DNA of 64,000 nt from Octopus sinensis (lineage: Eukaryota): assembly GCF_006345805.1 (NCBI RefSeq), contig NC_043018.1:22816001-22880000 (forward strand), written 5' to 3'. Shown here in pieces: positions 16,212 through 50,888 of the stretch. The stretch's first letter is position 1. Every line of letters starts with the position of its first letter. A model generated the notes under the pieces. It was given only the letters and a program-made list of their open reading frames with translations, searched no databases and was not told the origin of the DNA. The position numbers and the translations under genes are program-made.

Positions 16212-16305
16212 GCCTCGGTAGCGCAGTAGGCAGCGCGTCAGTCTCATAATCCAAAGTTATCATCGAGCCATCTGAAGGTCGTGAGTTCGATCCTCACCCG
16301 GGGCA
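16212..16305 (+). tRNA. Elongator tRNA-Met(CAT) with 21-nt intron (16249-16269)
   Basis: Exons give a 73-nt GCCTCGGTAGCGCAGTAGGCAGCGCGTCAGTCTCATA/ATCTGAAGGTCGTGAGTTCGATCCTCACCCGGGGCA; 7-bp acceptor stem, TTCGA T-loop, CAT at 16245-16247; intron at canonical 37/38 position. Confidence 0.95.
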
Positions 16306-23642: not shown

Positions 23643-26600
23643 GTGAACTCCAAGAAGGTATCTGTGTCCTGGAATCAACTACAGCATCCGTGTTTACCAG
23701 CCAAGGCGAAGAATACAACGTCGCTTTGCCATTCCAGGTTACTAAATCCTGGGTTATTAAGAATGGGCTTCTCTTTGAACGTTCCTTGTCGTCGTCAGAA
23801 ATTGTTCCAAAAGTGTCTCGAAATGCTGCCAACCACTCCATTGTGTTCAGTATGTTGCATCCTCTTAATGACATTGCTCCTGTCATTCATGGCCCTAGCA
23901 ATGCCAACACCACACAGAACAAGGTTAGCTATTTCACTGACACGTCTCAGAGTATTGTGTTCAGCTGTGTCGAGCCCTCTATACTTCTTGTGTACGACAA
24001 CACAGCTGGACTACACTGTGTGTGGAAGGTCCGTCGTGTGAAGCCTGAGGAGAGTAATTTTCTCTTTGAAACCTGTGATATGCCCAGTTTATGCCACCTA
24101 AATAATTCCCTACTGAATACATCTTCTCATAACCAGTCAAAAGTCAGCAACATTTCACCTGGCATATCTCTGTTGCAGAATTTCTCCAACAGGACATTCT
24201 CACCTTCTCCTTCATGTTCCATAAGTCCTGTTGTCAGTAACCACTTGACATCTTCTGGAAATTCAGGCAGCTGCACTCAGTCTCCATTGGCTTTTGCGTC
24301 TTCAAGTCAATCTCGACCGTTCTACAGCCTAAATGCTCAGTCGAGGTCTTCCATGACATACATGCGTTCTCCTCCAGGCAGCCAAAACTTCTCAGTGATG
24401 TCCGAAAGCATGAATTATCGAATTGAACCGGTTAATCCTGATATATGTCTTGACCATATCTGGACTGAGTCGGCTACATCAAATCGTGAAGAGTTTGTTG
24501 GGAAAGCGAGCAAAGCATTCATTGCTAAGGATCTTTGTGAGCAGAACTATTTGTGTTACTTGATTCCACAAAGGCAACATCTACGTTGTGTGAAATTTGA
24601 GAAAAGCAATGATAATTCTCAGCTGATATTCGGTGCAGTTTGTACAATAGCTGCCAAAGATGCCCTCCCAGTTGAATTGCTTAACTTAACTGTAGTGCTA
24701 GATTTATCTGGCAGCCTTATCATATACAGTGGAACAACCAAAATCAACAAGTTGTTTGTGCCCAAATTGCCTATAGGAATTGCATCGCTGAATGCTTCGG
24801 CATCGCTGACTCCTCACAACTCTGTCCGAGTCACTAGCATGATCACATCAAGTCGGCCATCAAGCACAAGCAATGTATCTTTCGAAGATCAATTGTCTCA
24901 CATTTCTCCAGTAATTGGATCACCAAATGTGCATGATAACCATGTACTTGAGAGTTCTACCAGAGACTCGGAGATTTGCTGCCACGACAACACAGTCCAT
25001 TGCATTCGAGATAACACCCTCTCACGGTTCACCATAGAAACCACCGATGGCTCTTTGCTGCGAACGTCGCTGCCACCACTTACCGAGTCGACAGGAATCG
25101 AAAGTAGTCTCGAAGCCCTGCGTTACATCTTACCCAAAGACTGTGCCATGAAGATGTTGTCTCGCTGGTATACGACACGTAATGTCACCAGTGGATTTGA
25201 CAATCAGTCGGAGTGGGTGGTCTTCTCTCGTTTTCTCCTGGGACAGATGGGTTTTGATACTAGCCGTCTGCCATTGACACATGAAAATGAATTCAACAAC
25301 ACAACATCTCCTGTGGTGGAAGTGAAACGAGCTAAACCATCCAACCAGGGCTGCAACGACGATTGGGAATATCTACTCAAATCCGAACACCATCATTTCA
25401 CATCTAAGTACTTTGATTCTGCCCTTGGCTTCTCACTCGTAGCCATACCCAACATATATTATCCAAAACCTTGCACTGTAAACCCATCAGCTCCTCTCTT
25501 CTCTTATATACCAAGCATTCTCTTCTCATTACACTTGGTTTATGAAGAACTCAAACTAAACACTTGTCTCTCTGGACAGCTCGAATATTTAGCTCTGATG
25601 CTTTTTTTTCTGGCTAACAATCTGAAATGTTTCTACTACACTGACATCTACTGTCGAGATTTCCCTCATCTCTATAATATGGTCGATGAAAACCACCAGA
25701 TACATCCTGAACAGTGGGCAAAGCTGCAGTTCTCATCTATATTTACTGAAGTGCCCCCTAACATATGCATGTGGATTTCTAAACTGTTATCTGGACTGGA
25801 ATGCCAGCCAGTTCCGTTCCTGCCCAATATTTGTAAACGAATAGAAAATATCGTCATACTCTACACCACCCTTGTCAATCAGAATTGTGAGGTTACCCAT
25901 TTCCTGAGAGAAATCCCTGTTTCTGGTTACCGAACTCTTTCCTCTCGAGCAAAAGGTTCTTTGAGTGAAACTGAGAAAAACTCGCTGTCAATAGCGGAGA
26001 GTATAGTGCTACTCATGACTCGGCTGGGCATCACAAAACGGGATCTGGAATCGTATCCCATAGGTGTTGTGCTGCCATTACGAGAAGCGATACTACAGTG
26101 TCGGTGGGATCCACCATCGGATTGGCCTGAGGAAGCTTACATTTTGATTGGTCGTAAAGATTTGTCCCGAATCAGCGCTTACTGTAAATGTCAGTCGGGT
26201 TCTTCCCTGAATGAAGGGCGCTACGTGAAAGAATGTCCTTCTCTTGGGAAAACAAACAAAGAAGACGATGATGGAATGGGTCACCTCGATGAAGAACTCT
26301 TGAAATTACGGTTCAGTGAAGACCTTCGAGTGCAAGAGGTTCGCCACATGTTACAGTCATCTCGTCCTGTTCGTATTTCACTTCAACAGAAACCGGAAGT
26401 GAGTGACCATGAATTCATTGAAGAACAAGAACGCTACCTGTACGCAATCTGTACAAGAACAATGGCCTTACCTGTTGGTCGAGGAATGTTTACTCTGTCT
26501 AGCTTCCATCCGTTACCTACAGAAGCCCTTCCTATTCCGAAACTATGCCTGACCGGGAAAGCTCCACCTCGCAACACCACAGTTGACCTCTCCCATATTG

Positions 26601-29074
26601 AAACCCCTTCCAATATGGCCACATGGCCACACTTTCACAATGGGGTCGCCGCTGGATTAAGGATTGCCAACTCTTCCCAGATAAATTCCACTTGGATCAA
26701 TTATAATAGACCTAAGACTTGTGATTTCACTACAGAATATGCTGGCTTCTTGATGGCACTTGGACTAAATGGCCATTTAGCTCATCTTGCTACCCTTAAC
26801 ATTCACGAGTATTTGAGCAAAGGTCAAGATATGACTACTATTGGGGTCCTGTTAGGGCTGGCTGCCACAAAACGGGGAACAATGGATCAGGGTATAACAA
26901 AGGTACTCAGCATCCATGTACCGGCCCTTTTACCACCGACATCGACCGAACTGAATATTTCTCACAATGTCCAAGTCGCAGCTGTTTTAGGAGTTGGTCT
27001 TGTCTATCAAGGCACAAGTCATCGTCACATTGCTGAAGTACTGCTGTCCGAGATTGGACGTCCACCTGGTCCTGAAATGGAGAACTGCACCAACCGCGAG
27101 TCATACGCCACAGCTGCCGGTCTTGCCCTTGGTCTGGTCATGTTTGGTAAAGGAAGTGAAGCTGCTGGCTTGTCCGATTTAGGAATGGCAGACACTCTCT
27201 GTCACTTCATGATTGGTGGTCATAAACGGCCGGTGACGGGGCCAAATCGGGAACGTTATAGGTCGCCAAGTTACCAAATCAAGGAAGGTGACAGCGTGAA
27301 TGTTGATGTCACTTCTTCTGGTGCAACACTGGCCCTCGGTATGCTTTACTTCAACACAAATAACACAGCAGTTGCCGACTGGCTGAAGGCACCAGATACT
27401 CAGTTCACCCTGGATCACGTCCGACCAGATTTCTTAATGCTGCGTACTTTATGTCATGGATTAGTGTTGTGGGATCACGTACTTCCAACGACGACATGGA
27501 TCGACAGCAATTTACCAATAATTGTACAGAAATATGGTTTCAAACGAGAATCCCACAGCAGAGATGAAGACAACATCGATTATGAAACAATGAGTCAAGC
27601 TTATTGCAATATCGTCGGTGGTGCTTGTATGGCAATGGGTTTGAAATTTGCAGGAACCGCTAATGCAGTCGCTTACCAAACTCTACTAGATTGCATGAAG
27701 CGCTGCATGTATCTTTTACCAGTTCCTCCATTCTGTGAACAAGCCGGTAAAAGCACTGTTGAAAACTGTACCGTTGTAGTGCTTCTTTCCCTTGCAATGG
27801 TAATGGCAGGAACTGGAGATCTCGATGTGCTCCGAATAGCCCGGGCTTTGCGAAAACGTGTCGGTCCACAACATTCTTATGCCACTTATGGGTCTCACAT
27901 GGCTGTGAGTATGGCTATTGGCCTTCTCTTTCTGGGTGGTGGTAGATATTCCCTCAGTACAAAGCCAGAAGCTATTGCAGCCATGCTGTGTGCCTTCTTC
28001 CCAAAATTCCCCACCCACAGCATTGACAACCGCTACCATCTACAAGCGTTCCGCCATCTGTATGTCTTGGCTGCTGAACCCCGAGTCTTGATACCAGAGA
28101 ATGTTATTTCACGCCAGCCTTGCTATGTTCCAGTGGAAATTCGGTTTAACGACACCAAATTTTACAAAAACGTCTGTTACACTACAATGGCACCGTGTCT
28201 CATTCCAGAGCTAAACTTGTTGAAGGAGGTAAAAATCTTGGGACCTCGTTACTGGCCAATCAGATTCGATGTAGACAAAAACTGGAAAACTTTAGAGTTG
28301 CTTCTTAAAAATAGTGGTGTTGTATATGTGAAACAGAAAGCTGGACATTTGTCTTACAGCGAAGATCCTAAAGGTTACCATGGTCATTTAGCCAAGTCTT
28401 TGACAAATAATGAGTCCAGTTTTGAATCAACAAAACTTCATCCAAAATCTATAAAGTCCTTCACATCAGATGCTCGAATATTGGCCTTCTCTGAGTTTTT
28501 CCTATTTAAAAATGAAAAAGAATGTGACAGGCTGGCCCCTGTTGTCTACAGTTGTGCCTTTAAAGAAAAACCAGAAGGGATCCCGACTCAGATGAACTTA
28601 GCCTATGAAGTCTGGCAGTCACAGATTAACAAAGCTCCTTTGGGACTTTGGCAACTGAAGATTGTCTTGAACTATTACGGCAGCAAATACCAGTTCAAAG
28701 CAAGTGAAGAAACAGAGAAAGTGCCACTCGTGGAACTGGATTATGTATTATCTCTGAAGAATGAACTGGAAAAGTTCCTTGCTGATTGGGAATCTAACAA
28801 CATGGAAATTCTGTTGAAATATTTCCAAGGAGAATCGTTGAAAGACGAGCAATGTGGACACTTGTCTGCTTTCATTGTTTGGTACGACATTCCGCATCCT
28901 CATGATTTAGCAAGTATCAGTGTGAAAGGAAAGCCCACTCTTCCAGTGTTGTGTAGCCAGCTTCCTCATTTACCAATGTCATCCATTATGAAATTGCTGA
29001 ATGCATGGTGCATCAAACAGACCTACTCCGAGAAGGGCCACCTTCCTGAGTTTTCCCTTTCTGCCGATTCCTGA
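23643..29074 (+). CDS. ANAPC1: ANAPC1 coding exon 3 (5432 nt, to stop)
   Basis: Acceptor tttcag|, phase 1, in frame with the 1794-aa ORF; APC1 motifs LPFQV...GLLFER, LRFSEDLRVQEV, RTMALPVGRGMFTL, WPHFHNGVAAGL, PC repeats, DNRYHLQAFRHLYVLA. Spliced CDS 84+313+5432=5829 nt, 1942 aa. Confidence 0.97.
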
Positions 29075-30009: not shown

Positions 30010-32774
30010 TTAAAAAGAAAGAATTCGAGCCAGGTTGTTGCCAGTACCGCCTGACTGGCTCGTAAAAGCACCCACTACACTCTCGGAGTGGTTGGCGTTA
30101 GGAAGGGCATCCAGCTGTAGAAACTCTGCCAGATCAAGACTGGAGCTTGGTGCAGCCATCTGATTCGCCAGCCCACAGTCAAACCGTCCAACCCATGCTA
30201 GCATGGAAAGCAGATGACCGAACGAAGGTGTATGTGTGGTTGGGTAGTAGAAGATCGCTTCAAGTCCACCCATAGTTTTGGGGTTTACTCTCTTTTGCAA
30301 GACACGTTTGTCTTCTATAGCCCTGGGACATCTAATGCAGTGATTCCCAACAGTGAGGCATGGGGTCTGGGAAAATTGTGGCAGAATGTGAGTTCGAAAT
30401 TTTTCTTTTTTTTTCACAACAAACACATTACACCTCCATTCAGTCCAGCCAATCCCTCCAAGCAAAAATACTCTGTGAAGACTGTTTGCTACAGTATAGC
30501 ACAGTTCTAATGCCATAGTGTGGATGTTTCCCTGGTGCAGTATACATTTTTCTGGGAAGCTATAGTGGGGCCAGGAGGGAAAACAGGTTAGGATGCACTG
30601 ACCCAATGCCAAAAATCTCTCCATCCAGAATTGATATTAGCAAGGTTATCTCCCTTGAATTAATTTACATCCGACGCGAGAGCGATTTTATTAGTTTCTG
30701 TTAAAGTATCTTTAATCTTTTACTTGCTTCTGTAATTGGACTGCGGCCACGCTGGAGCATCGTTTTGAAGGGATTTCGCCAAAAAGATTAACCCCCAGTG
30801 CTTGTTTTTAAGTTTGGTGTTTATTTTACTGGTGTCTTTCGCTTAACCACTAAGTTGGCTGGGACAAACATACATGTATATACTGTATCATCATCAGCCT
30901 TTAACGTCCGTTTCCCATGCTGGCATGGGTTGGACGGTTTGACCAGAGCTGGCAAGTCAGAGAGTTGCACCAAGTTCCGGTTTGATTTGACTTCGTTTCT
31001 ATGGCTGGATGTCCTTTGTAACACTAACCATTCTGTGTGAAAGGTTAGAGAAAGAAACCCTGCTGTTTCTTGCAAAACATATCAATATGAGATACATCTA
31101 AAGCAAAATGTTTTATGGACCCTTAAAATACTATCGTTGATCCCAAATTTACTTTGCTTGTGTGGATCCCCAGAAATCTTACGTGAACCTTTTGTCCTTT
31201 CTGGATCAGTGACATAAGTACCAGTTGTGTACTTGGGTTGATGTAATTGATTTACTCCATCCTTTAAAAATTGCTGGCTTTGTGCCTATAGTAGAAAGAA
31301 TTATTTTTAATATTGGTTTCAAATTTTAGCACAAGGCCAGCAAGTTCAGGGGAAGAATATGACACTGGCACAAGTGCTTTCACTTGGCATCGGCACCAGT
31401 ACTTTTTTTCATGTACACACTGGGACACTACTCTCACAGGTCAATCCTCTTTACTTGGGGGAGCGGCCTTAACACTTTCTGCTGTGGAGAACGGGTCTTT
31501 TTGTGTACAGCAAGCTGCCAGGTATCTCGATCCTTTGTCATCTTGTCCAAAAGGTTCTGTGTCCTTGTGCAACATAAAACCCAAAACGAAAGTTACTTCT
31601 TTTGGTTACACTTGAAAATGATCAAGCAGCTTGGATCAGGATCTCTTCCTGTCTAATTAGGTGTCTCTAATTAATGTTAAAAATAATAGCAGGGCCGCAA
31701 GCCAGCAGAACCTATTTCTTTATTGCCCACAAGGAGCTAAACATAGAGCGGACAAACAGATTAAGTCGATTACATCGACCCCAGTGCGTAACTGGTACTT
31801 AATTTATCGAACCCGAAAGGATGAAAGGTAAAGTCGACTTCAGCGGAATTTGAACTCAGAACGCAGCGGCAGACGAAATACCACAAAGCATTTCGCCCGG
31901 CGTGCTAACGATTCTGCCAGCTCGCAAGCCTGCACAACCATTAGCACGCTCAGAGGCATGTCGTCTGTCTTTACGTTCTGAGTTCAAATTCTACCAAGGC
32001 CAACTTTACCTTTTATTCTTCTGGGGTTGATAAAATGAGTACCAGTTATGCACTGGGTCAATGTAATCGACTTAACCTCATCCCTCGAACTTGCTGGCCT
32101 TGTGCTAAAATTTGAAACAAATATTAAAAATAATTATTTCTACTATAGGCACAAAGCCAGCAATTTTTAAAGGATGGAGTAAATCGATTATATCAACCCC
32201 AGTACACAACTGGTACTTATGTCACTGATCCAGAAAGGACAAAAGGAAAAGTTTACTTCAGTGGAATTTGAACTCGGAATGTTAAACCCAAAGAAATGCA
32301 GTTAAGTATTTTCTCTGCCTTGCTCAATCCCTGTAACTGGGGTGCTTGCTTTTCCACCCTGTCAGTTCTTCTCTTTCTCTCTCTCTGCCTGAGGCAGCCA
32401 TGTCTCTCCTCTACAGCAAGGCACCATTTTCTGTCCCTCAACACTGCTTTCTCCTCAGGTGAGAGGTATTGTCTTGCAAGCTACTTGATAAACCTCACTG
32501 TTGCCAGTGTCGCATAAAAGGCACCCCAGTACACTCTTGTAAAGTGGTTGGTGTTACGAAGGGCATCCAACTGTAGAAACTCTGCCAATGCAGACTGCAT
32601 AGATTGGGGCAGTCTTCTGCCAGTTCAATGGAAAATGGAGGTCACTGCTGGTCTCTTTCTTGTCTGGCTGTCACCCCTCACAGGTGGTTGCTGAACGGTG
32701 GCAGTGACCTGGTTGGCTTGGCCTATGCAAACCTGGTGACGGCATACTATCATGTCTAGGCCTACCTGTTAGCA

Positions 32775-33808: not shown

Positions 33809-36104
33809 GCTTAGAGGAAGTAAAAGTCATAACAACGGTGTTGGTGATGGATACTCACTCCTTGATAATTCTTTCACATTTTGGCACAAGGCCAGCAATT
33901 CTGAGGGAAGTGGAAATGCCCCTAAGTAGGTTGGCTTGTGTGCTGACAATTCTGCCAGTTCACCATCTTACTACTACATAATAATAATAATCCTTTCTAC
34001 TAAAGGCACAAGGCCTGAAATTTGGGGGGAGGAGACCAGTCAATTACATCGACTTCAGTTTTTCACTGGTACTTAATTTATTGACCCCGAAAGAATGAAA
34101 GGCAAAGTTGACCTCAGCAGATTTTGAATTTGGGATGTAAGGACAGATGAAATACCTCTATGGGTTTTGTCTGACATGCTAACAACTCTGCCAGCTCACC
34201 ACCTTCATCATAATCATAATAATGACCCCTTTTTTTATTGGCACAAGACCTGAAAATTCTAGGGGAGGAGACTAGTCAATTACATCAACCATAGTGCACG
34301 ACTGGTACTTATTTTATCGACCCCTGAAAGGGTGAAAGGCAAAATCACCCTCAGTGGAATTTGAACTCAAAACACCAAGCCAGAGGAAATGCTGCTAAGC
34401 ATTTTAACCAGTACACTAATGAGTCTACTAATAATAATAATAATAACAAGAGCACTCAGAAAGTGCAAACCTCTGCCAAGGCAACATCAACATCCTCTCA
34501 ATGATTAGCCGAAGATGATTTTTAAAATGAGAATATCTGAAATATACTTGATTGCTCTTACAAAAGAGAATACTAAAAATGAACCTGACCACTCTCAAAA
34601 ATTAAGTTAAAAAAAAAATACAGTAAAAATAATCCAGCATCCTTGTCCGGTACCAGATCAATCCCAAAATCTAAACAGTTCATGTCAGTCATGAGGCCAA
34701 ACATCCCTGAAAGTCTCATCCAAATCCATCCAGCAGTTCTTGAGATGTCTTGTCCACAGACAAACCAACAAACACGACTGAAAACAATACCTCCACCTTT
34801 GCTAAGGCTGAGGTTAATAACACAGGCACACGACGAAGTTCTGAAATTTAGGTGAGGAGTCTAGATAATAATAAAACAAACAGAAAAAAAACGAAACCTT
34901 GAGACTTGAAAAATATTCAATTCATTTGTGTTATTTTAATTTACATCGTTAACATAACGATAATATTTAATTGATTTATTAATATATGAAATATTTCATA
35001 AGATGATTAGCTTTGCACATGTCTTTTTTTCCTTAATATTTTTTCCATTTTACAGTTGTCTTTATTAAGCATAATTTTAATATAATTATTACTAATTAGG
35101 TCAGATGAGTGCAGTGTTAAGTTCTAAGTGCACCAAATCTGCAATCAGGTTTTTGGATTTCATTGGAACTGCATTTTTCAACTTTTGTTCCCTTTGATCG
35201 CTACCTGGAGTTCTTGGATGTCTTGCTTAACCCTTTCGTTACTGTATTTCTGTTGAGATGCTCTGTGTTTCTTTCAATTACTTTAAATATAACAAAGAAT
35301 TTAGTAAAATAACTTGGTTATCATTCAGCTGGTGTTAGGAGCATAGATTGTGACTAAGGTTTGGGGGAAGATTTTAATTCAAAACTTATGAAAACAAGAC
35401 ATTTGTACTCAAGAGGCCGAAATTCTGGTTTGAGGAATATGTCCTCTGTTCTGTTCTGGAAGCAATGGAAAGGATCAAAGGTGCTGCTTCTTCTTCCAAT
35501 GAAACATTAAAGGCAAACACATGCATATGCAGAGAAAACAATGCACCACATACATAAACGGAGTCCTAACATACACATGCACACACATTTACACACACAC
35601 ACACAGACAACATCACATAAATATACATGAAGGTACAAACTAATCACATGCATATACATCAATATGCGCACGCACACACACACATGCACACAAACCACAC
35701 CCTACACACATACATGAATATACAAGCAACACAATATATTTTCACATACATACATAAATATACACACATTTATGTACACATACACACAAAAATGGTGATG
35801 CGAGTGGTAGTGAATGGAATGATGGAAGTGGTGGTGGGCATGGTGGTAGTGAAGCGATGGAATTGACATTTTGAAAGTACACACACACACATACATACAC
35901 AGGCCACATTACACTAACCACACCATACACACAATATTTGAATAATAAAAAATGATATAAACGAGTTGGTCATGGCTGGAATTCACTTAATGATTGGTCT
36001 GTGCAATCAGGATCAACCTATGGCTAAACAACAGCACTTCCATGTCCATCACCTTTAATTACCCTTAGCAAGGAATTCAATCTGTTGAATGTTCACTGAT
36101 CAGG

Positions 36105-36646
36105 TTGCAGCTGGTTGGTTTTATGTCACCCTTAAGAAAGCCATCCTCCATACATCTCTTTCGATCTAATCGATCATATTCCAACGCAGTACCTTACTGG
36201 TAGAGAGAGAGAGCGAAGATTTTTCTGTCCCAACCTTTGAAAATCAGAAAAATTGTGAAACCGGTTAAGCCTTTAAAAATAAACCCTCTAAATGACTCCC
36301 TGTGCATTTTCAATTTCTGTTTTTCTATATTTCTACCCATGTAGGATAAAATAACTTTGTTTTCTATACTTACACACACTTATATATATATACATATATA
36401 TATATATAGCCAGCAGCTAGGTACCCCATAAACAACTATGCCTAACCCTAACACCAAGATTGCCTGCTTCTTTTAGAGAAGGGGGAGAATTCTAAAAGAA
36501 GCAGGCAATCCTGGTGTTAGGGTTAGGCATAGTTGTTTAAGGGGTACCTAGTAAGGTACTGGGGTGGAATATGATCGATTAGAGTAGGGAAAGAGATGAA
36601 TGGAGGATGGCTTTCTTAAGGGCGACATAAAACCAACCAGCTGCAA
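36105..36646. repeat. Fold-back (long inverted repeat) interrupted by a 217-bp insertion
   Basis: Inner hairpin 36417-36477 / 36491-36551; outer arms 36105-36199 / 36549-36646. Confidence 0.85.
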
Positions 36647-37655
36647 AGAGCAGGAAATATAGCAGTAGGACAAAGAGGGGTGTCTAGATGTGGAAGTATC
36701 CCAGTTTTAAGAATACCTGGAAGGAAGGACAGCTGGCAATAAAATATCATCTCAACAAAACAGTCCAACCCATGCCAGCAGATGTAAAATTCTGTTATAG
36801 CTGCTGGCTATATATATATATAATACACCAATCCGACCGTGGCCGTTGGCAGCCTCGCCTGGCACCGGTGCAGGTGGCACGTAAAAAGCACCCACTACAC
36901 TCACGGAGTGGTTGGCATTAGGAAGGGCATCCAGCTGTAGAAACATTGCCAGATAAGACTGGAGCCTGGTGCAGCCTTCTGGCTTCCCAGACCCCCAGTC
37001 GAACCGTCCAACCCATGCTAGCATGGAGAACAGACGTTAAACAATGATGATATATATATATACGATTGTTTTGTGAATGTTCCGATCATAAATCTGCTCT
37101 GAAACAATTTTAACCTTCACTAAACAGTAACAACAACAATAACAACAACAGTGATATTCACTCAGTGGTATTGATATTGTATTCAGGCGTTAACCAATGA
37201 AAGTAAACATCTGTGAACGAGTCAAAAGTAGGTGGACTGTTTGACGCTGGTTTAGAATCAACGTAGACAGAGGGACGGCATTAGCGATTGTATTTACTTC
37301 TTCAGCCGTGAAACAAGGTCATTTCTGGCATGCTTTAGTTCGTTATTTACAAAAACTGAACAAAAAATGAAGAGGGCAGAGAAATTATAATTGAACAGCT
37401 AATTAGCTCTTCTAAGATTCTTTTACTTTAAATATATCATAAAACTCTGTGTGTGTGTGTAAACACAAAAACACACACACACATATATATATCATCATCT
37501 GGTCAAGCATCCTCAGACAATACATTTATATATACACACGTATGTGTGTGTGTGTGTGTGCTTAAATATATACATATATATGTATATATATATATATACA
37601 CATATATATGCATGTGTGTATACGTACGTAAATACATAACATATGTATTTGCATA

Positions 37656-37706
<51 letters not shown>

Positions 37707-38160
37707 ATGCTAGCATGGAAAACGGACGCTAAACGATGATGATGATGATTTATATATATATATATTTATATATAAATAGATAGATACACACACACACAGA
37801 TATCTATATATATAGACAGAGAGAGAGAAGGAAGACATTGTGGCATAGCCCCACATTTTTCTGTCCCGACCTTTGAAAATCAGAAAAGTTGTGAAACCGG
37901 TTAAGCCTTTAAAAATAAACCCTCTAAATGACTCCCTGTGCATTTTCAATTTATGTTTTTCTATATTTCTACCCATGTAGGATAAAATAACTTTGTTTTC
38001 TATACTTACACACGCTTATATATATATATATATATAATTCAAAAATATAAGGAATGGCCATAATAGGACATTCGACTCACTAGAAAGAGCAGCCAAACTC
38101 AAACCGCTAATAGTTGTAATTCTGAAATTGAAAGAGAAATAAAAACATTTACCCCTTTCA

Positions 38161-38255
38161 TCTCTGGACTATGCATAGTTTCGGCAAACTTTAGTAAACA
38201 AATTAATTAAATTAAATTAAATTTATTTACAACTGGCATGCCTCGTCAGCAGAGA
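38161..38255 (-). ncRNA. Type I hammerhead ribozyme (inverted copy)
   Basis: Reverse complement reads TCTCTG CTGACGA GGCA...TGCC GAAA CTATGCATAG TC CAGAGA; all core nucleotides intact. Confidence 0.85.
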
Positions 38256-38578
38256 AGCCAAGGACGAGTATATATCCACGAGGCGATGGTAAGGAAGCCT
38301 CAAGTCTATATGCTATAAATTTTCAAAATCTACCGCAATCGCGCGGTCTTCTCAGCAGTAAATATAAACTGCTGATTTAATTTCAAAATTAGCCAAAAAG
38401 TTTTTTGCTACCCTTATATTTATTAATTAATGATTTTTTGGCTAATTTTGAAATTAAATCAGCAGTTTATATTTACTGCTGAGAAGACCACGCGATTGTG
38501 GTAGATTTTGAAAATTTATAGCATATAGACTTGAGGCTTCCTTACCATCGCCTCGTGGATATATGTTCGTCCTTGGCT

Positions 38579-38673
38579 TCTCTGCTGACGAGGCACGCCA
38601 GTTGTAAATAAATTTAATTTAATTTAATTAATTTGTTTACTAAAGTTTGCCGAAACTATGCATAGTCCAGAGA
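38579..38673 (+). ncRNA. Type I hammerhead ribozyme
   Basis: Stem I TCTCTG/CAGAGA, core CTGACGA (38585-38591), stem II GGCA/TGCC with long AU hairpin, GAAA (38652-38655), palindromic stem III CTATGCATAG, GUC cleavage after C38667. Confidence 0.87.
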
Positions 38674-38896
38674 TGAAAGGGGTAAATGTTTTTATTTCTC
38701 TTTCAATTTCAGAATTACAATTATTAGCGGTTTGAGTTTGGCTGCTCTTTCTAGTGAGTCGAATGTCCTATTATGGCCATTCCTTATATTTTTGAATGTA
38801 TATTATATAGTCTTTGACTATCTTTTCTTTCTCACTGGACCGCTGGTAGCGGAGAATTTTTTCAAGAATTTTTTGCTACCCTTATATTTATTAATA

Positions 38897-38934
<38 letters not shown>

Positions 38935-42819: not shown

Positions 42820-42887
42820 CATATACATTATATATGTATAATTTATATACATACATATGTATGCATGTATGTATGTATATGTATATA

Positions 42888-42924
<37 letters not shown>

Positions 42925-43190
42925 ATATATATATAAACATATATATGCATATATAGACACATATATATATGTGTGTGTATATATATATATATATATAATA
43001 TATGTATGTATGTATATATGTATATATATACACACACACACACACACACATATTTATACATATACATGTCTTGCAAACAATTTGCACATGCAAGTGCTAC
43101 CAGTTAAAAGCTCCGTATACCTTTTAACATATATATGCATATATATATATACCTACATGCATACATATATATATATGTATACATATACAC

Positions 43191-47605: not shown

Positions 47606-50259
47606 CTAAGCAGCAGAGAATGTCCTAATTAGGTGCTCATAGTCTTCTTCCTGCAGCTTTTCTCATGGCTGGTCCTTCCTATGTTTGGCAAGCAAGATCT
47701 GTAAGCAAGGAAGGTGCTGCAGGGCTGTGGTACGTCGTCCTTCTCTCTTTGGCATTTTGCTATGAGGGCCAGGATGTTTTTCTTTCTGGAGCCGTTTAAC
47801 TCCTAAAAGCTTCTTATTTATGTTTACGTAAAAATAAATGAGTAAAAAAAAAAAAATAACAAAATTCAATTAACAACAAGATAAAAAAAAATTTATTTTG
47901 TTTCTGTTTGTTTTTTCTTTTTTTTTTGTATCTGCAATAAATTTGATTATTTTTATACAAATAAGCTTTGATGATATATAAACATTTATACAACATAAGG
48001 GATTGGTTTTTGTGATTGCGTCTTTGGTGATAATATATATAAACATACAACATAGAGACTTCATTTTGTTTTTGCAATTTATATATAATAATTTCATTGT
48101 AGACTAGTTAATATTTAACAAATTCATTTTATAATAATAAACAATTGTATTAATCTTGAAAACAAAAATAAAATGGAAAAAAAAAATGATAAAAAAAATA
48201 TGTAAGGAATGTCTTCAGCATATAAATTCTTTGCTCTTTTTTGTTCCTTTTAAATAACAAAATGTAACTGCCATATTTCAACTTGATTTAGAAAAATAAG
48301 GAAAAATTGAAAATAAAATAAAATCTAAAAAAAAAAAAATGTTTAATTGCAGACATGACTCGTTAAGGTCATTTAATTTTGAAAGACATTCTTCAAGTTG
48401 ATGGAAGTTCATGGCTAAGGGAAAACACTGGATTCTTAGCAAATAGATTTACACACACGAGTGATATATGAGCGATTATATGCATTATATATATATATAT
48501 ACATACATATAATGCATATAACTTCTGTAATAGACATTATATGTACATATACATGTATAACATATATACATACATAACATACAAAACACACACACATACA
48601 TATATACATAAATATATATAGACATACATATACATGTTTATTAAACAAGCTTCCGTTTTTATTTTAAGGAAACAAAAAAAGAGAAAGTTTAATGGAGTTG
48701 CAAATGGCTGTATGCGTGTGCATGAGTGTGTGTTCGTGAATAAAAAGCCAAAAGCCAAAAACCAATACAGACTACACTTGTAAAAATGCAAGCTTTCGTT
48801 CGATCATGCAGGTGGACATCTTCAGAGAAAATAAATGTGTAACAAGTCATCACATGTTCACAATGAGCATGAGCTTAGTTTCACAGCATAGAGGTGTGTA
48901 GGAGAGGAGGGGGGAGAAGCAGACAGCTGTTTCTTCAAAAAGTTAGCAACAAATTTAGGACAGCACCAAATGTTGGTTGGCTGGTTACAAATATATGTGT
49001 GTGTGTGTATATATATATATGTGTGTATATGTATATATATATAGCATAAACAACAAGGAAAGCATTCATAAGAAGAAAAAAAAAACACTGAAGTAACCAA
49101 CTGGGAATTGAAACTCTGTATAATATTTTGTTTCATCACCACATGCAAATTTATTTAAACTATTCCCATGGTAATACTGTATGTAACCTTAACCTTTTAG
49201 CATTTAAAATGGCTGTATCCAGCCCAAATATTCTGTTTTTTTATTCACACCAGCCAGATCTAGCCTCTAACACCTACCCCAGCAATGTCATTCTAAGAAT
49301 AAACAATCACATCATCGAAATCTCAAAGTTACAAGGTAAAGCAGGATTAATTTAAAAGAGTGGGAATAAATACGTGTTAGATTTGACAAAGTAATCTGAC
49401 AACTAACTTGACCCTTTCGCACTTAAACTGGCCAAATCTGGCTCAAATATTTTGCATGTTTTATTAAGTAAAATAAGCATTTGCTGAAAACATCAAGGAA
49501 AGAGGGTGCACCACAGAAATGGTAACGGGTTTATGGCACAAAAGAAATCACTTTTAACACTTTAGTATTTAATCTGGCCATATTCAGCCCAAATATTCTA
49601 CCTGTTTTATGTTCAAACTGGGCCAGATCCAGCCTGCAATGTCATTCTGAAAGTCAACAATGACATCGCTGAAATCCTGAAGCTACAAGATAATGCATGA
49701 TTAATTGAAATGTGAATAAATAAGCATTATGCTTGACAAAAACAGATAGTAGCCTTATGCATTACAAGCGATCTCTATGTGGGAGTATAGGGACAGCTTG
49801 ATGAAGTCCATACCGTTGAGGTTTGGTTTGAGTGACTCTTCAATGACCGAGTCACTCCTTGTTTCACTCAAGGATTAATTCGATGGAGGTCTTGTCTATA
49901 TAGGGCTTTCTTATTTCTTTCGGTATCTCTTTCTCTTTAGCTGCCACACATACATTTCATACATACATACATGATGCAAATTCTACTCATTGGTGATTAG
50001 CCTAAGATTAAGCAGTGATGGATATAGGTTTAGATTTAAACAAAGCAACTTATGCATTCAAAGAGTGTGTTTGTTAGTGTGTATAATGAAAGCTGGTAAA
50101 ACTCCTGTCTATATTCCATGGAGGATTCAATACGAAGATATGGATCCAAATTCTATGAAGTACTCATGCTTTTAGCTTCTCTAATACACACAGGTACATA
50201 CTTGTGTATATGTGTGCACACAGACATGCACATATATAAGCATATATAATTATATAAAC

Positions 50260-50460
50260 ATAATTATAATAATGAGGGCACTGATGAATAGCACCACATG
50301 CTAGAAATAGATACCAAATGGCTCTAAGAACTACAGTTATTCCATTAGCAGGGACTGAAATCCGTGCTAATGGAGTAAATAATTGTAGTTCTTAGAGCCA
50401 TTTGGCATCTATTTCTAGCATGTGGCGCTATCCATCAGTGCTCTCATTATTATAATTATA
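50260..50460. repeat. Inverted repeat (~95-bp arms, ~8-nt loop) downstream of SNAPIN stop
   Basis: taattataataatgagggcactgatg...tccattagca vs tgctaatgga...catcagtgctctcattattataatta. Confidence 0.9.
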
Positions 50461-50888
50461 TATACTTGTATTAATTGTTACCTGTATGGGTTATTACTTG
50501 ATAAAATCTTATATAGATTTTATCCTTGGTCATTAAATATATATATATATATATATATATCATTGTATTGTAATAATATATTTTTATATGTATATATGTG
50601 TGTGTATATTTTATATATATATATATACACACACACATTATAACAGTCTGACTCAGCGTCATATGACAAACTTCCGTGGGTAGATTGGAGACATCCATCT
50701 CATCAAATGTATTGAGTACTTCTTTCTTCTATTTGTTCATTCACTCATGTGTGTGTGTGTGTATGTGTATGTGTGTGTGTGTGTATGTGTGTGTGTATAT
50801 ATATATATATAGATAAATAAAATTTTGCATTTTACATGTGTGTATTTATGTATGTAAGTGTGCATGTATAGAATATATGGGTCTCTTT

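Follow-up and report, generated by a model that had tools for sequence, protein, structure and literature searches.

Non-LTR retrozymes of metazoans are described (Cervera & de la Pena 2020, PMC7229834) as non-coding, many-copy units with a GC content below 50% and a type I hammerhead, mollusc hosts included, that are joined head to tail and have a stable predicted circle permitting the ribozyme fold. Their units are given a range of 150–450 bp in that paper (350–390 bp in, for example, Mytilus galloprovincialis) and of 51–972 bp in a preprint (Li, Clavereau, Pollet 2026, bioRxiv 10.64898/2026.07.22.740005). The preprint proposes that retrozymes originate and are mobilized as non-autonomous derivatives of Penelope-like elements (PLEs), on the basis of co-occurrence and pseudo-LTR (pLTR) phylogeny, mostly in vertebrates; of 9 predicted retrozyme dimers assayed there in vitro, 8 did not cleave. 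The enzyme that moves animal retrozymes has so far been argued from co-occurrence and phylogeny.

Endonuclease-bearing PLEs (PMC3846280, PMC8557442) insert into (TA)n as partial tandems with a head-to-head inverted 5′-truncated copy and a one-sided extension, and carry a hammerhead in the repeat. Craig 2021 (PMC8557442) reports the partial tandems, the adjacent inverted truncated copy, a 30–40-bp tail, a bias to microsatellites and also non-autonomous head-to-tail derivatives, and calls the formation of the inverted repeat and the tail unresolved. The same layout is described in Arkhipova 2013 (PMC3846280), in which self-priming is proposed; hammerheads in pLTRs, including opposite-strand pairs 100–700 bp apart, are described in Cervera 2014 (PMC4209133), and inverted pLTRs are taken as routine in Goubert 2022 (PMC8969392). 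In PAc (Poseidon, Anolis; Frangieh 2024, PMC11167929), two internal RT starts 3′ of the hammerhead bound the tail, the target is AT-rich, and both strands are nicked and extended in vitro. In Octopus vulgaris, 190 PLE families make up 6.83% of the genome and 31 PLE families were recently active (PMC13282606); the words hammerhead, ribozyme and retrozyme do not occur in that paper. We found no description of an octopus or cephalopod retrozyme in the open literature (subscription papers and repeat databases, which lay outside the search, may hold a consensus).

The locus described here is, with a probability of roughly 0.75, a head-to-head insertion into (TA)n of a non-LTR retrozyme, that is, a non-autonomous PLE, in the standard PLE layout and with a PLE RT/GIY-YIG protein acting in trans. 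The kind of element and the insertion layout are already known from the PLE literature; a repeated end signal and a hint of two templates are additions beyond the known layout. The octopus element shares the retrozyme traits listed above, with a unit of 468 nt that lies slightly above the range of PMC7229834 and inside that of the 2026 preprint, and differs in having a long AU hairpin for loop 2 and in consisting of one unit, 27 nt of another and an inverted copy. It likewise shares the listed traits of endonuclease-bearing PLEs, but its unit has no ORF, its extension is 98 nt rather than 30–40, and its direct pLTR is just 27 nt. As in PAc, two ends 3′ of the hammerhead bound a tail at an AT-rich target; PAc starts in an AC-rich stem-loop within its ORF (PMC11167929), whereas the octopus ends lie 130 and 228 nt past the cut site, are U-rich, stand 15 nt past a hairpin and have a motif in common. 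The origin and mobilization that we propose are those of the preprint, the basis here being the insertion anatomy of one cephalopod copy.

Insertion anatomy and hammerhead motif

The features discussed below lie within the window, the whole 64-kb stretch of octopus DNA that was analysed (strand in brackets where assigned).

36219–36419 (+): empty paralogous site, about 1.6 kb upstream, with flanks as at the filled site and without the element
38017–38036: left target tract, (TA)10
38037–38399 (−): inverted arm, a 5′-truncated copy of the unit (equal to 38435–38797), its 3′ end facing outward into (TA)n; outer end possibly about 10 nt further out, within the TA tract
38161–38255 (−): hammerhead fold of the inverted copy, the mirror of the + strand pairing; core from 38249, predicted cut after 38167
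38400: lone G at the inversion joint: not templated, a mutation, or from a family variant with G here
38401–38427 (+): short 3′ remnant of an upstream unit, 27 nt, equal to the very short pseudo-LTR of a partial tandem
38428–38895 (+): complete non-coding unit, 468 nt, 33% GC, a circular permutation of the predicted RNA monomer, which would start at 38668
38579–38673 (+): type I hammerhead fold with 6-bp stem I, CUGACGA, 4-bp stem II, GAAA and palindromic stem III
38761–38797 (+): end module A, predicted hairpin 38761–38782 plus 15 nt; the inverted arm ends here and a TA-like tract (38798–38810) follows
38798–38895 (+): extension, 98 nt, at one end only, the analogue of the PLE 'tail'
38845–38895 (+): end module B, predicted 16-pair hairpin 38845–38880 plus 15 nt; right end of the insertion
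38896–38914: right target tract, 19 nt in which A and T alternate

The left flank (37855–38016) is repeated at 36219–36380 with 4 differences in 162 nt, and this paralogous copy goes on, without the element, through (TA)6, an identical C interruption and 11 nt from the start of the right flank. The empty paralog thus identifies 38037–38895 as one insertion into (TA)n and fixes the ends of the element, and the target is an AT-rich microsatellite, as in PLE-type insertion, for which a target-site duplication is optional. The TA content is (TA)6 at the empty site versus 20 + 19 nt at the filled site, and slippage in the TA tract masks any target-site duplication and makes its length unreadable. 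The empty site lies in a repeat nest (36100–36830), in which a palindrome (36105–36202/36545–36646) surrounds the empty-site copy and a 135-nt hairpin element (36417–36551, 61-nt arms); the right flank recurs inverted at 36676–36809 (7 differences in 134 nt), and this copy ends in (TA)n. Other palindromic stretches at 8050–8484, 31758–32285, 42868–43067 and 50244–50471 have arms of 71–92% identity and no hammerhead core by regular expression.

Between the tracts, the two arms (38037–38399 and 38435–38797, 363 nt each) differ by six transitions and no other changes (98.3% identity), and the 27-mer at 38401–38427 is identical to 38869–38895 at an offset of 468 nt (blastn E 7e-8 inside the window). 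Homology at the inversion junction amounts to 1–2 nt at most, and the one-sided extension to 98 nt, or about 86–98 nt allowing for the TA ambiguity. No ORF remnant was found in the 468-nt unit, the longest stop-free frame in the tandem unit being 94 codons on the + strand and 54 on the − strand; nor did an RT or GIY-YIG domain, the coding content of an autonomous PLE, match in the 29 ORFs scanned, a selection of those in the window. The preliminary description had spoken of 363-bp arms about 98% identical, a terminal 27-mer repeated at the centre right before a unit of about 468 nt, and an element without an ORF, and was accurate on each. An ATG in stem II of the left arm was considered as an ORF remnant near the ribozyme and rejected, as its frame ends after nine codons; in PAc, too, a start codon lies in stem II of the hammerhead. 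The arrangement is the PLE-type partial tandem with an adjoining inverted 5′-truncated copy, and the unit has the properties of a non-LTR retrozyme: short, non-coding, below 50% GC, with a type I hammerhead and no apparent LTR structure.

On the + strand, stem I pairs 38579–38584 with 38668–38673 (6 of 6 Watson–Crick pairs) and stem II pairs 38592–38595 with 38648–38651 (4 of 4); CUGACGA lies at 38585–38591, GAAA at 38652–38655, a long AU hairpin (38604–38640) takes the place of loop 2, and stem III falls within a perfect 12-nt palindrome (38655–38666), with the predicted cut 3′ of C38667. These are the elements of a type I hammerhead (core CUGANGA, GAAA and UH; three closing stems; open at stem I), and a regular expression for the core had only two matches on both strands of the 64 kb, at + 38585 and − 38249. 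The complete type I hammerhead claimed for each arm is therefore present in all core letters and stems, which is the sense in which we call the motif intact, and Rfam adds no independent support: no hammerhead family reached its gathering score, and on a 141-nt stretch only the RAGATH-1 hammerhead aligned (12.7 bits, E 8.4), over the core and the ends of stems I and III, with the long stem II insert skipped. Rfam miRNA matches, far under their gathering scores, reflect the palindrome and were discarded. Stem III alone is predicted not to fold (0.0 kcal/mol), and two-molecule pairing yields −12.5 kcal/mol, which resembles the dimer-type design of metazoan type I hammerheads (PMC4209133). Being on opposite strands, the two hammerheads of the locus would not dimerize in cis. 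A scan for the pattern of the hammerhead 3′ half gave 0 matches in viral contigs and 0 in metagenome contigs, and thus no lead toward a viroid-like or viral origin. Immediately downstream of the hammerhead, 38682–38712 (+) comprises GT, a pyrimidine tract and AG and resembles a splice acceptor; the same stretch offers an alternative pairing that would block stem I, at low predicted probability. PLE introns are retained near their ribozyme (PMC4209133).

The unit in sequencing-run contigs

The stretch occurs wholly or partly in 20 of 24 listed sequencing runs (four organism labels, 8 studies), with half of its words or more in 8; runs with a word share under 0.2 were left out. Contigs from four of the 24 runs were aligned: X1, X2 and X3 (organisms A, B and C; DNA-type, X2 being treated as such with its kind of run not on record) and X13, which is only guessed to be RNA. 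On the 495 nt, 1491 (X1), 686 (X2) and 1157 (X3) contigs aligned across all identity classes, numbers in line with the many copies of a non-LTR retrozyme (686–1491 contigs per DNA-type run), the claim being limited to many divergent copies since summed contig depth gives no copy number. Contigs are silent on strand, ends and circles, and the low cover at 38602–38641 is a stretch skipped as repeat, not a deletion. The share of aligned DNA that runs into unlike sequence is 0.01, and an ORF-bearing form at ≥85% identity is not common among the aligned contigs (24 of 300 loose ends listed).

Ten joints were listed, three that go back by 456–467 nt, four strand changes and three internal skips. The joint 38861>38401 goes back in X1, X2 and X3, and X2 and X3 also have 38856>38401 and 38878>38412, the shorter side reaching as many as 64 and 79 letters; further joints of this kind are listed at 38846>38427, 38851>38401 and 38874>38417. 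As other copies carry more of the upstream unit, the head-to-tail junction is a family trait: in all three DNA-type runs it continues further upstream than the 27-mer, and divergent copies under three organism labels (8–17 differences per listed piece) have the 3′ end joined to 38428 at the same place. The opposite-strand joints, at 38401/38677 (X1, X3), 38421/38680, 38487/38792 and 38500/38782, all sit elsewhere than that of the window (38401/38435), which is not among the ten joints listed; 38401/38677, the only strand change with its orientation shown, is head-to-head like that of the window. This joint is shared by runs of two organism labels at single-contig depth and is possibly one insertion predating their split.

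Given a family-wide tandem junction and variable inversion joints, the element is the 468-nt ORF-less unit and not, as the preliminary description had it, the palindrome, which is likely made afresh at each insertion. That description took a single-copy unit with no junction elsewhere as part of what would count against it; copies are many, and the junction occurs in 3 of 3 DNA-type runs. Of the tandem arrays that it suggested looking for, only this junction was seen; arrays of at least two consecutive full units with complete hammerheads, by which the 2026 preprint calls a retrozyme 'active', were seen neither at the locus nor in the listed contig pieces, which are too short to span the stretch. 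Loose ends at 38486, 38724, 38734 and 38784–38786 indicate diverged subfamilies that share about 38435–38485 and 38690–38790 and differ elsewhere, some with a longer internal TA tract after module A.

These contigs bear on whether the 468-nt unit propagates by itself or is no more than a truncated pLTR end from an autonomous Penelope-like element. Most PLE insertions are 5′-truncated, opposite-strand hammerhead pairs 100–700 bp apart have been ascribed to truncated PLEs (PMC4209133), and the listing, with 24 of 300 loose ends, excludes sequence beyond the ends of the stretch. Against this, divergent copies under three organism labels join the 3′ end to 38428 at the same place, only 0.01 of the aligned DNA runs on unlike, and the unit has no ORF remnant, and we regard a truncated pLTR as improbable. 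Long inverted arms, TA flanks, the lack of an ORF and the further palindromes in the window would also suit a TA-targeting fold-back DNA transposon (MITE) with a chance hammerhead-like motif; the ends are asymmetric by 98 nt, however, the inversion joints vary among copies, and a tandem junction and a complete ribozyme core are present, which makes a MITE very improbable. Single-armed copies and variable centres, which would contradict a MITE, are partly visible in the contigs. An assembly or library artefact (a fold-back chimeric read), with which the absence of the joint of the window among the ten listed would agree, is scarcely credible given six arm differences of which several are family variants, an empty paralog that matches both flanks and like inversions in other copies.

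End signal, templates and the inverted arm

In the predicted fold, 15 nt separate each end of the insertion from the base of a hairpin (pair probabilities 0.97–0.99), and both outward ends carry a common 16-nt motif, CCTTATATTT-W-T-K-AAT. Within the 64 kb the motif has four occurrences, one at either end, one at the centre and one at 38782–38797, where 0.06 are expected; three of the four are mutual copies by construction, and the informative comparison is that between modules A and B, in which 38782–38797 and 38880–38895 match at 14 of 16 positions, a value reached in 12 of 5000 shuffles. In four X2 contigs the unit gives way to (AT)n at 38803, which shows module A in use independently, with the caveat that the TA-like tract after the module may be an old insertion scar or priming site. 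The list of hairpins came partly from a bacterial promoter scan, the promoter calls of which are irrelevant to an octopus host.

At five of the six arm differences, the letter in the left arm is a listed family variant and the majority in X1 (38596 is not listed). For the adjacent pair 38565–38566, both states are common in the family and their shares move together (0.82/0.83, 0.44/0.46 and 0.30/0.33). That a double change later than the insertion restored a common variant is unlikely; the arms therefore probably derive from different template variants, or were converted later. The base before the 27-mer is G at the centre and A in the 3′ unit, and one X1 contig has G there. Read from unphased contig tables, both observations hint weakly at a mixed multimer or at two RNAs, rather than at a single circle read once.

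This copy has two or three letters that are almost its own (38721, 38864 and perhaps 38490). With a borrowed clock (JC 0.09 = 25 My, PMC13282606) and few sites, the insertion may be dated very roughly to about 1–2 My, and it appears younger (1.2–1.8 My) than the flank duplication (about 3.4 My), again from very few sites. The preliminary reading of a young non-autonomous retroelement from a tandem or circular template agrees with the many copies and the family-wide junction, 'young' standing for roughly 1–2 My.

In the retrozyme reading, tandem units would be transcribed and cut after C38667 by the predicted hammerhead, probably as a dimer, giving 468-nt monomers that possibly circularize, and a PLE protein would nick both (TA)n strands. 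The first cDNA, 495 nt long, would start from end module B (38895) and cross the ribozyme site, uncut or re-ligated, and then the junction, ending 27 nt inside the next unit; as it passes both, its template would be an uncut multimer or a ligated circle. Uncut RNA is the main substrate in vitro (PMC11167929), so the junction is no proof of a circle. The second cDNA, of 363 nt, would be made on the other strand from module A (38797–38803), likely on a different template variant, and the two cDNA ends would be joined with little or no homology. We tentatively suggest, as one possible course, that a dimeric Penelope protein began reverse transcription at both target strands, on two different retrozyme RNA units and each time at the signal duplicated in this family (a hairpin plus 15 U-rich bases).

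The inverted arm of the same element could also have arisen by fold-back self-priming of one cDNA, with the ends set by endonuclease cuts at the shared AAT. Self-priming has been proposed for PLE inverted junctions (PMC3846280), the PLE endonuclease tested prefers ATT (PMC11167929), the complement of both ends, and three of the six arm differences are in CpG and could be later than the insertion. One cDNA should yield identical arms, yet 38565–38566 differs with both states common in the family (a difference for which later gene conversion could also account), and the junction homology is too short to speak for self-priming; we consider this course doubtful. If dual priming is true, it would provide a sequence rule for PLE start sites and account for inverted copy and tail together, in a single step, and the anatomy would show the PLE machinery moving retrozymes, here in the first cephalopod retrozyme family. 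A family of short units in many copies, polymorphic and with an end signal that recurs, makes both questions, the formation of inverted repeat and tail and the identity of the moving enzyme, testable by counting in an octopus assembly.

Predicted RNA folds and other features of the window

The circle opened at the cut site is predicted to fold on the + strand with −125.7 kcal/mol (z −6.2; none of 100 shuffles reached so low a value), compared with z −3.7 for the − strand and +0.7 to −3.6 for five control stretches; low z-scores are not unique to the unit, and this predicted fold is supportive only. A predicted helix (38705–38717/38443–38455) bridges both sides of the head-to-tail junction, and forcing the active hammerhead within the circle costs 4.8 kcal/mol. 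Among 37 listed variant sites, two both-side pairs were observed versus 0.99 expected (P 0.26, not significant), with variants unphased and 59 further variant rows left out. None of the listed variants falls in the 31 core positions (P 0.056), part of which is poorly covered.

For the whole 859-nt + strand the predicted fold is a 363-bp duplex (−654 kcal/mol) in which the core pairs with the opposite arm. A read-through transcript would meet the antisense arm first and the fold would bury the ribozyme in the duplex, so that self-cleavage at the locus is unlikely and the landed palindrome is probably inert as a ribozyme. Of the double-stranded RNA with one self-cleavage site that had been proposed for the locus, the long duplex is retained as a predicted fold, and the cleavage, with the core buried, is unlikely. 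If read through, the landed palindrome would give long double-stranded RNA, and each inverted landing could yield such RNA in long perfect form, in an animal with heavy A-to-I editing. X13 (92 contigs, taken as presence only) has no sign of A-to-I editing, with 13 A>G and 17 T>C changes versus 10–14 and 14–15 in the DNA-type runs.

Elsewhere in the window, an APC1 reading frame at 23690–29074 (+) runs over 1794 codons with no intron break; as the matching octopus protein has 1942 aa, a single exon holds most of the gene. In a search with 401 residues, it is 100% identical to a protein assigned to Octopus sinensis, 97% to that of Argonauta and about 72% or less to those of other molluscs, which identifies the host as an octopus. 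A tRNA gene at 16212–16305 (+) has 23 extra nt following the anticodon, which are likely an intron (Rfam 54.4 bits; missed by ARAGORN with bacterial settings). A frame at 57850–58389 (−) has a partial Snapin/Pallidin match (E 6e-9) and is probably an exon.
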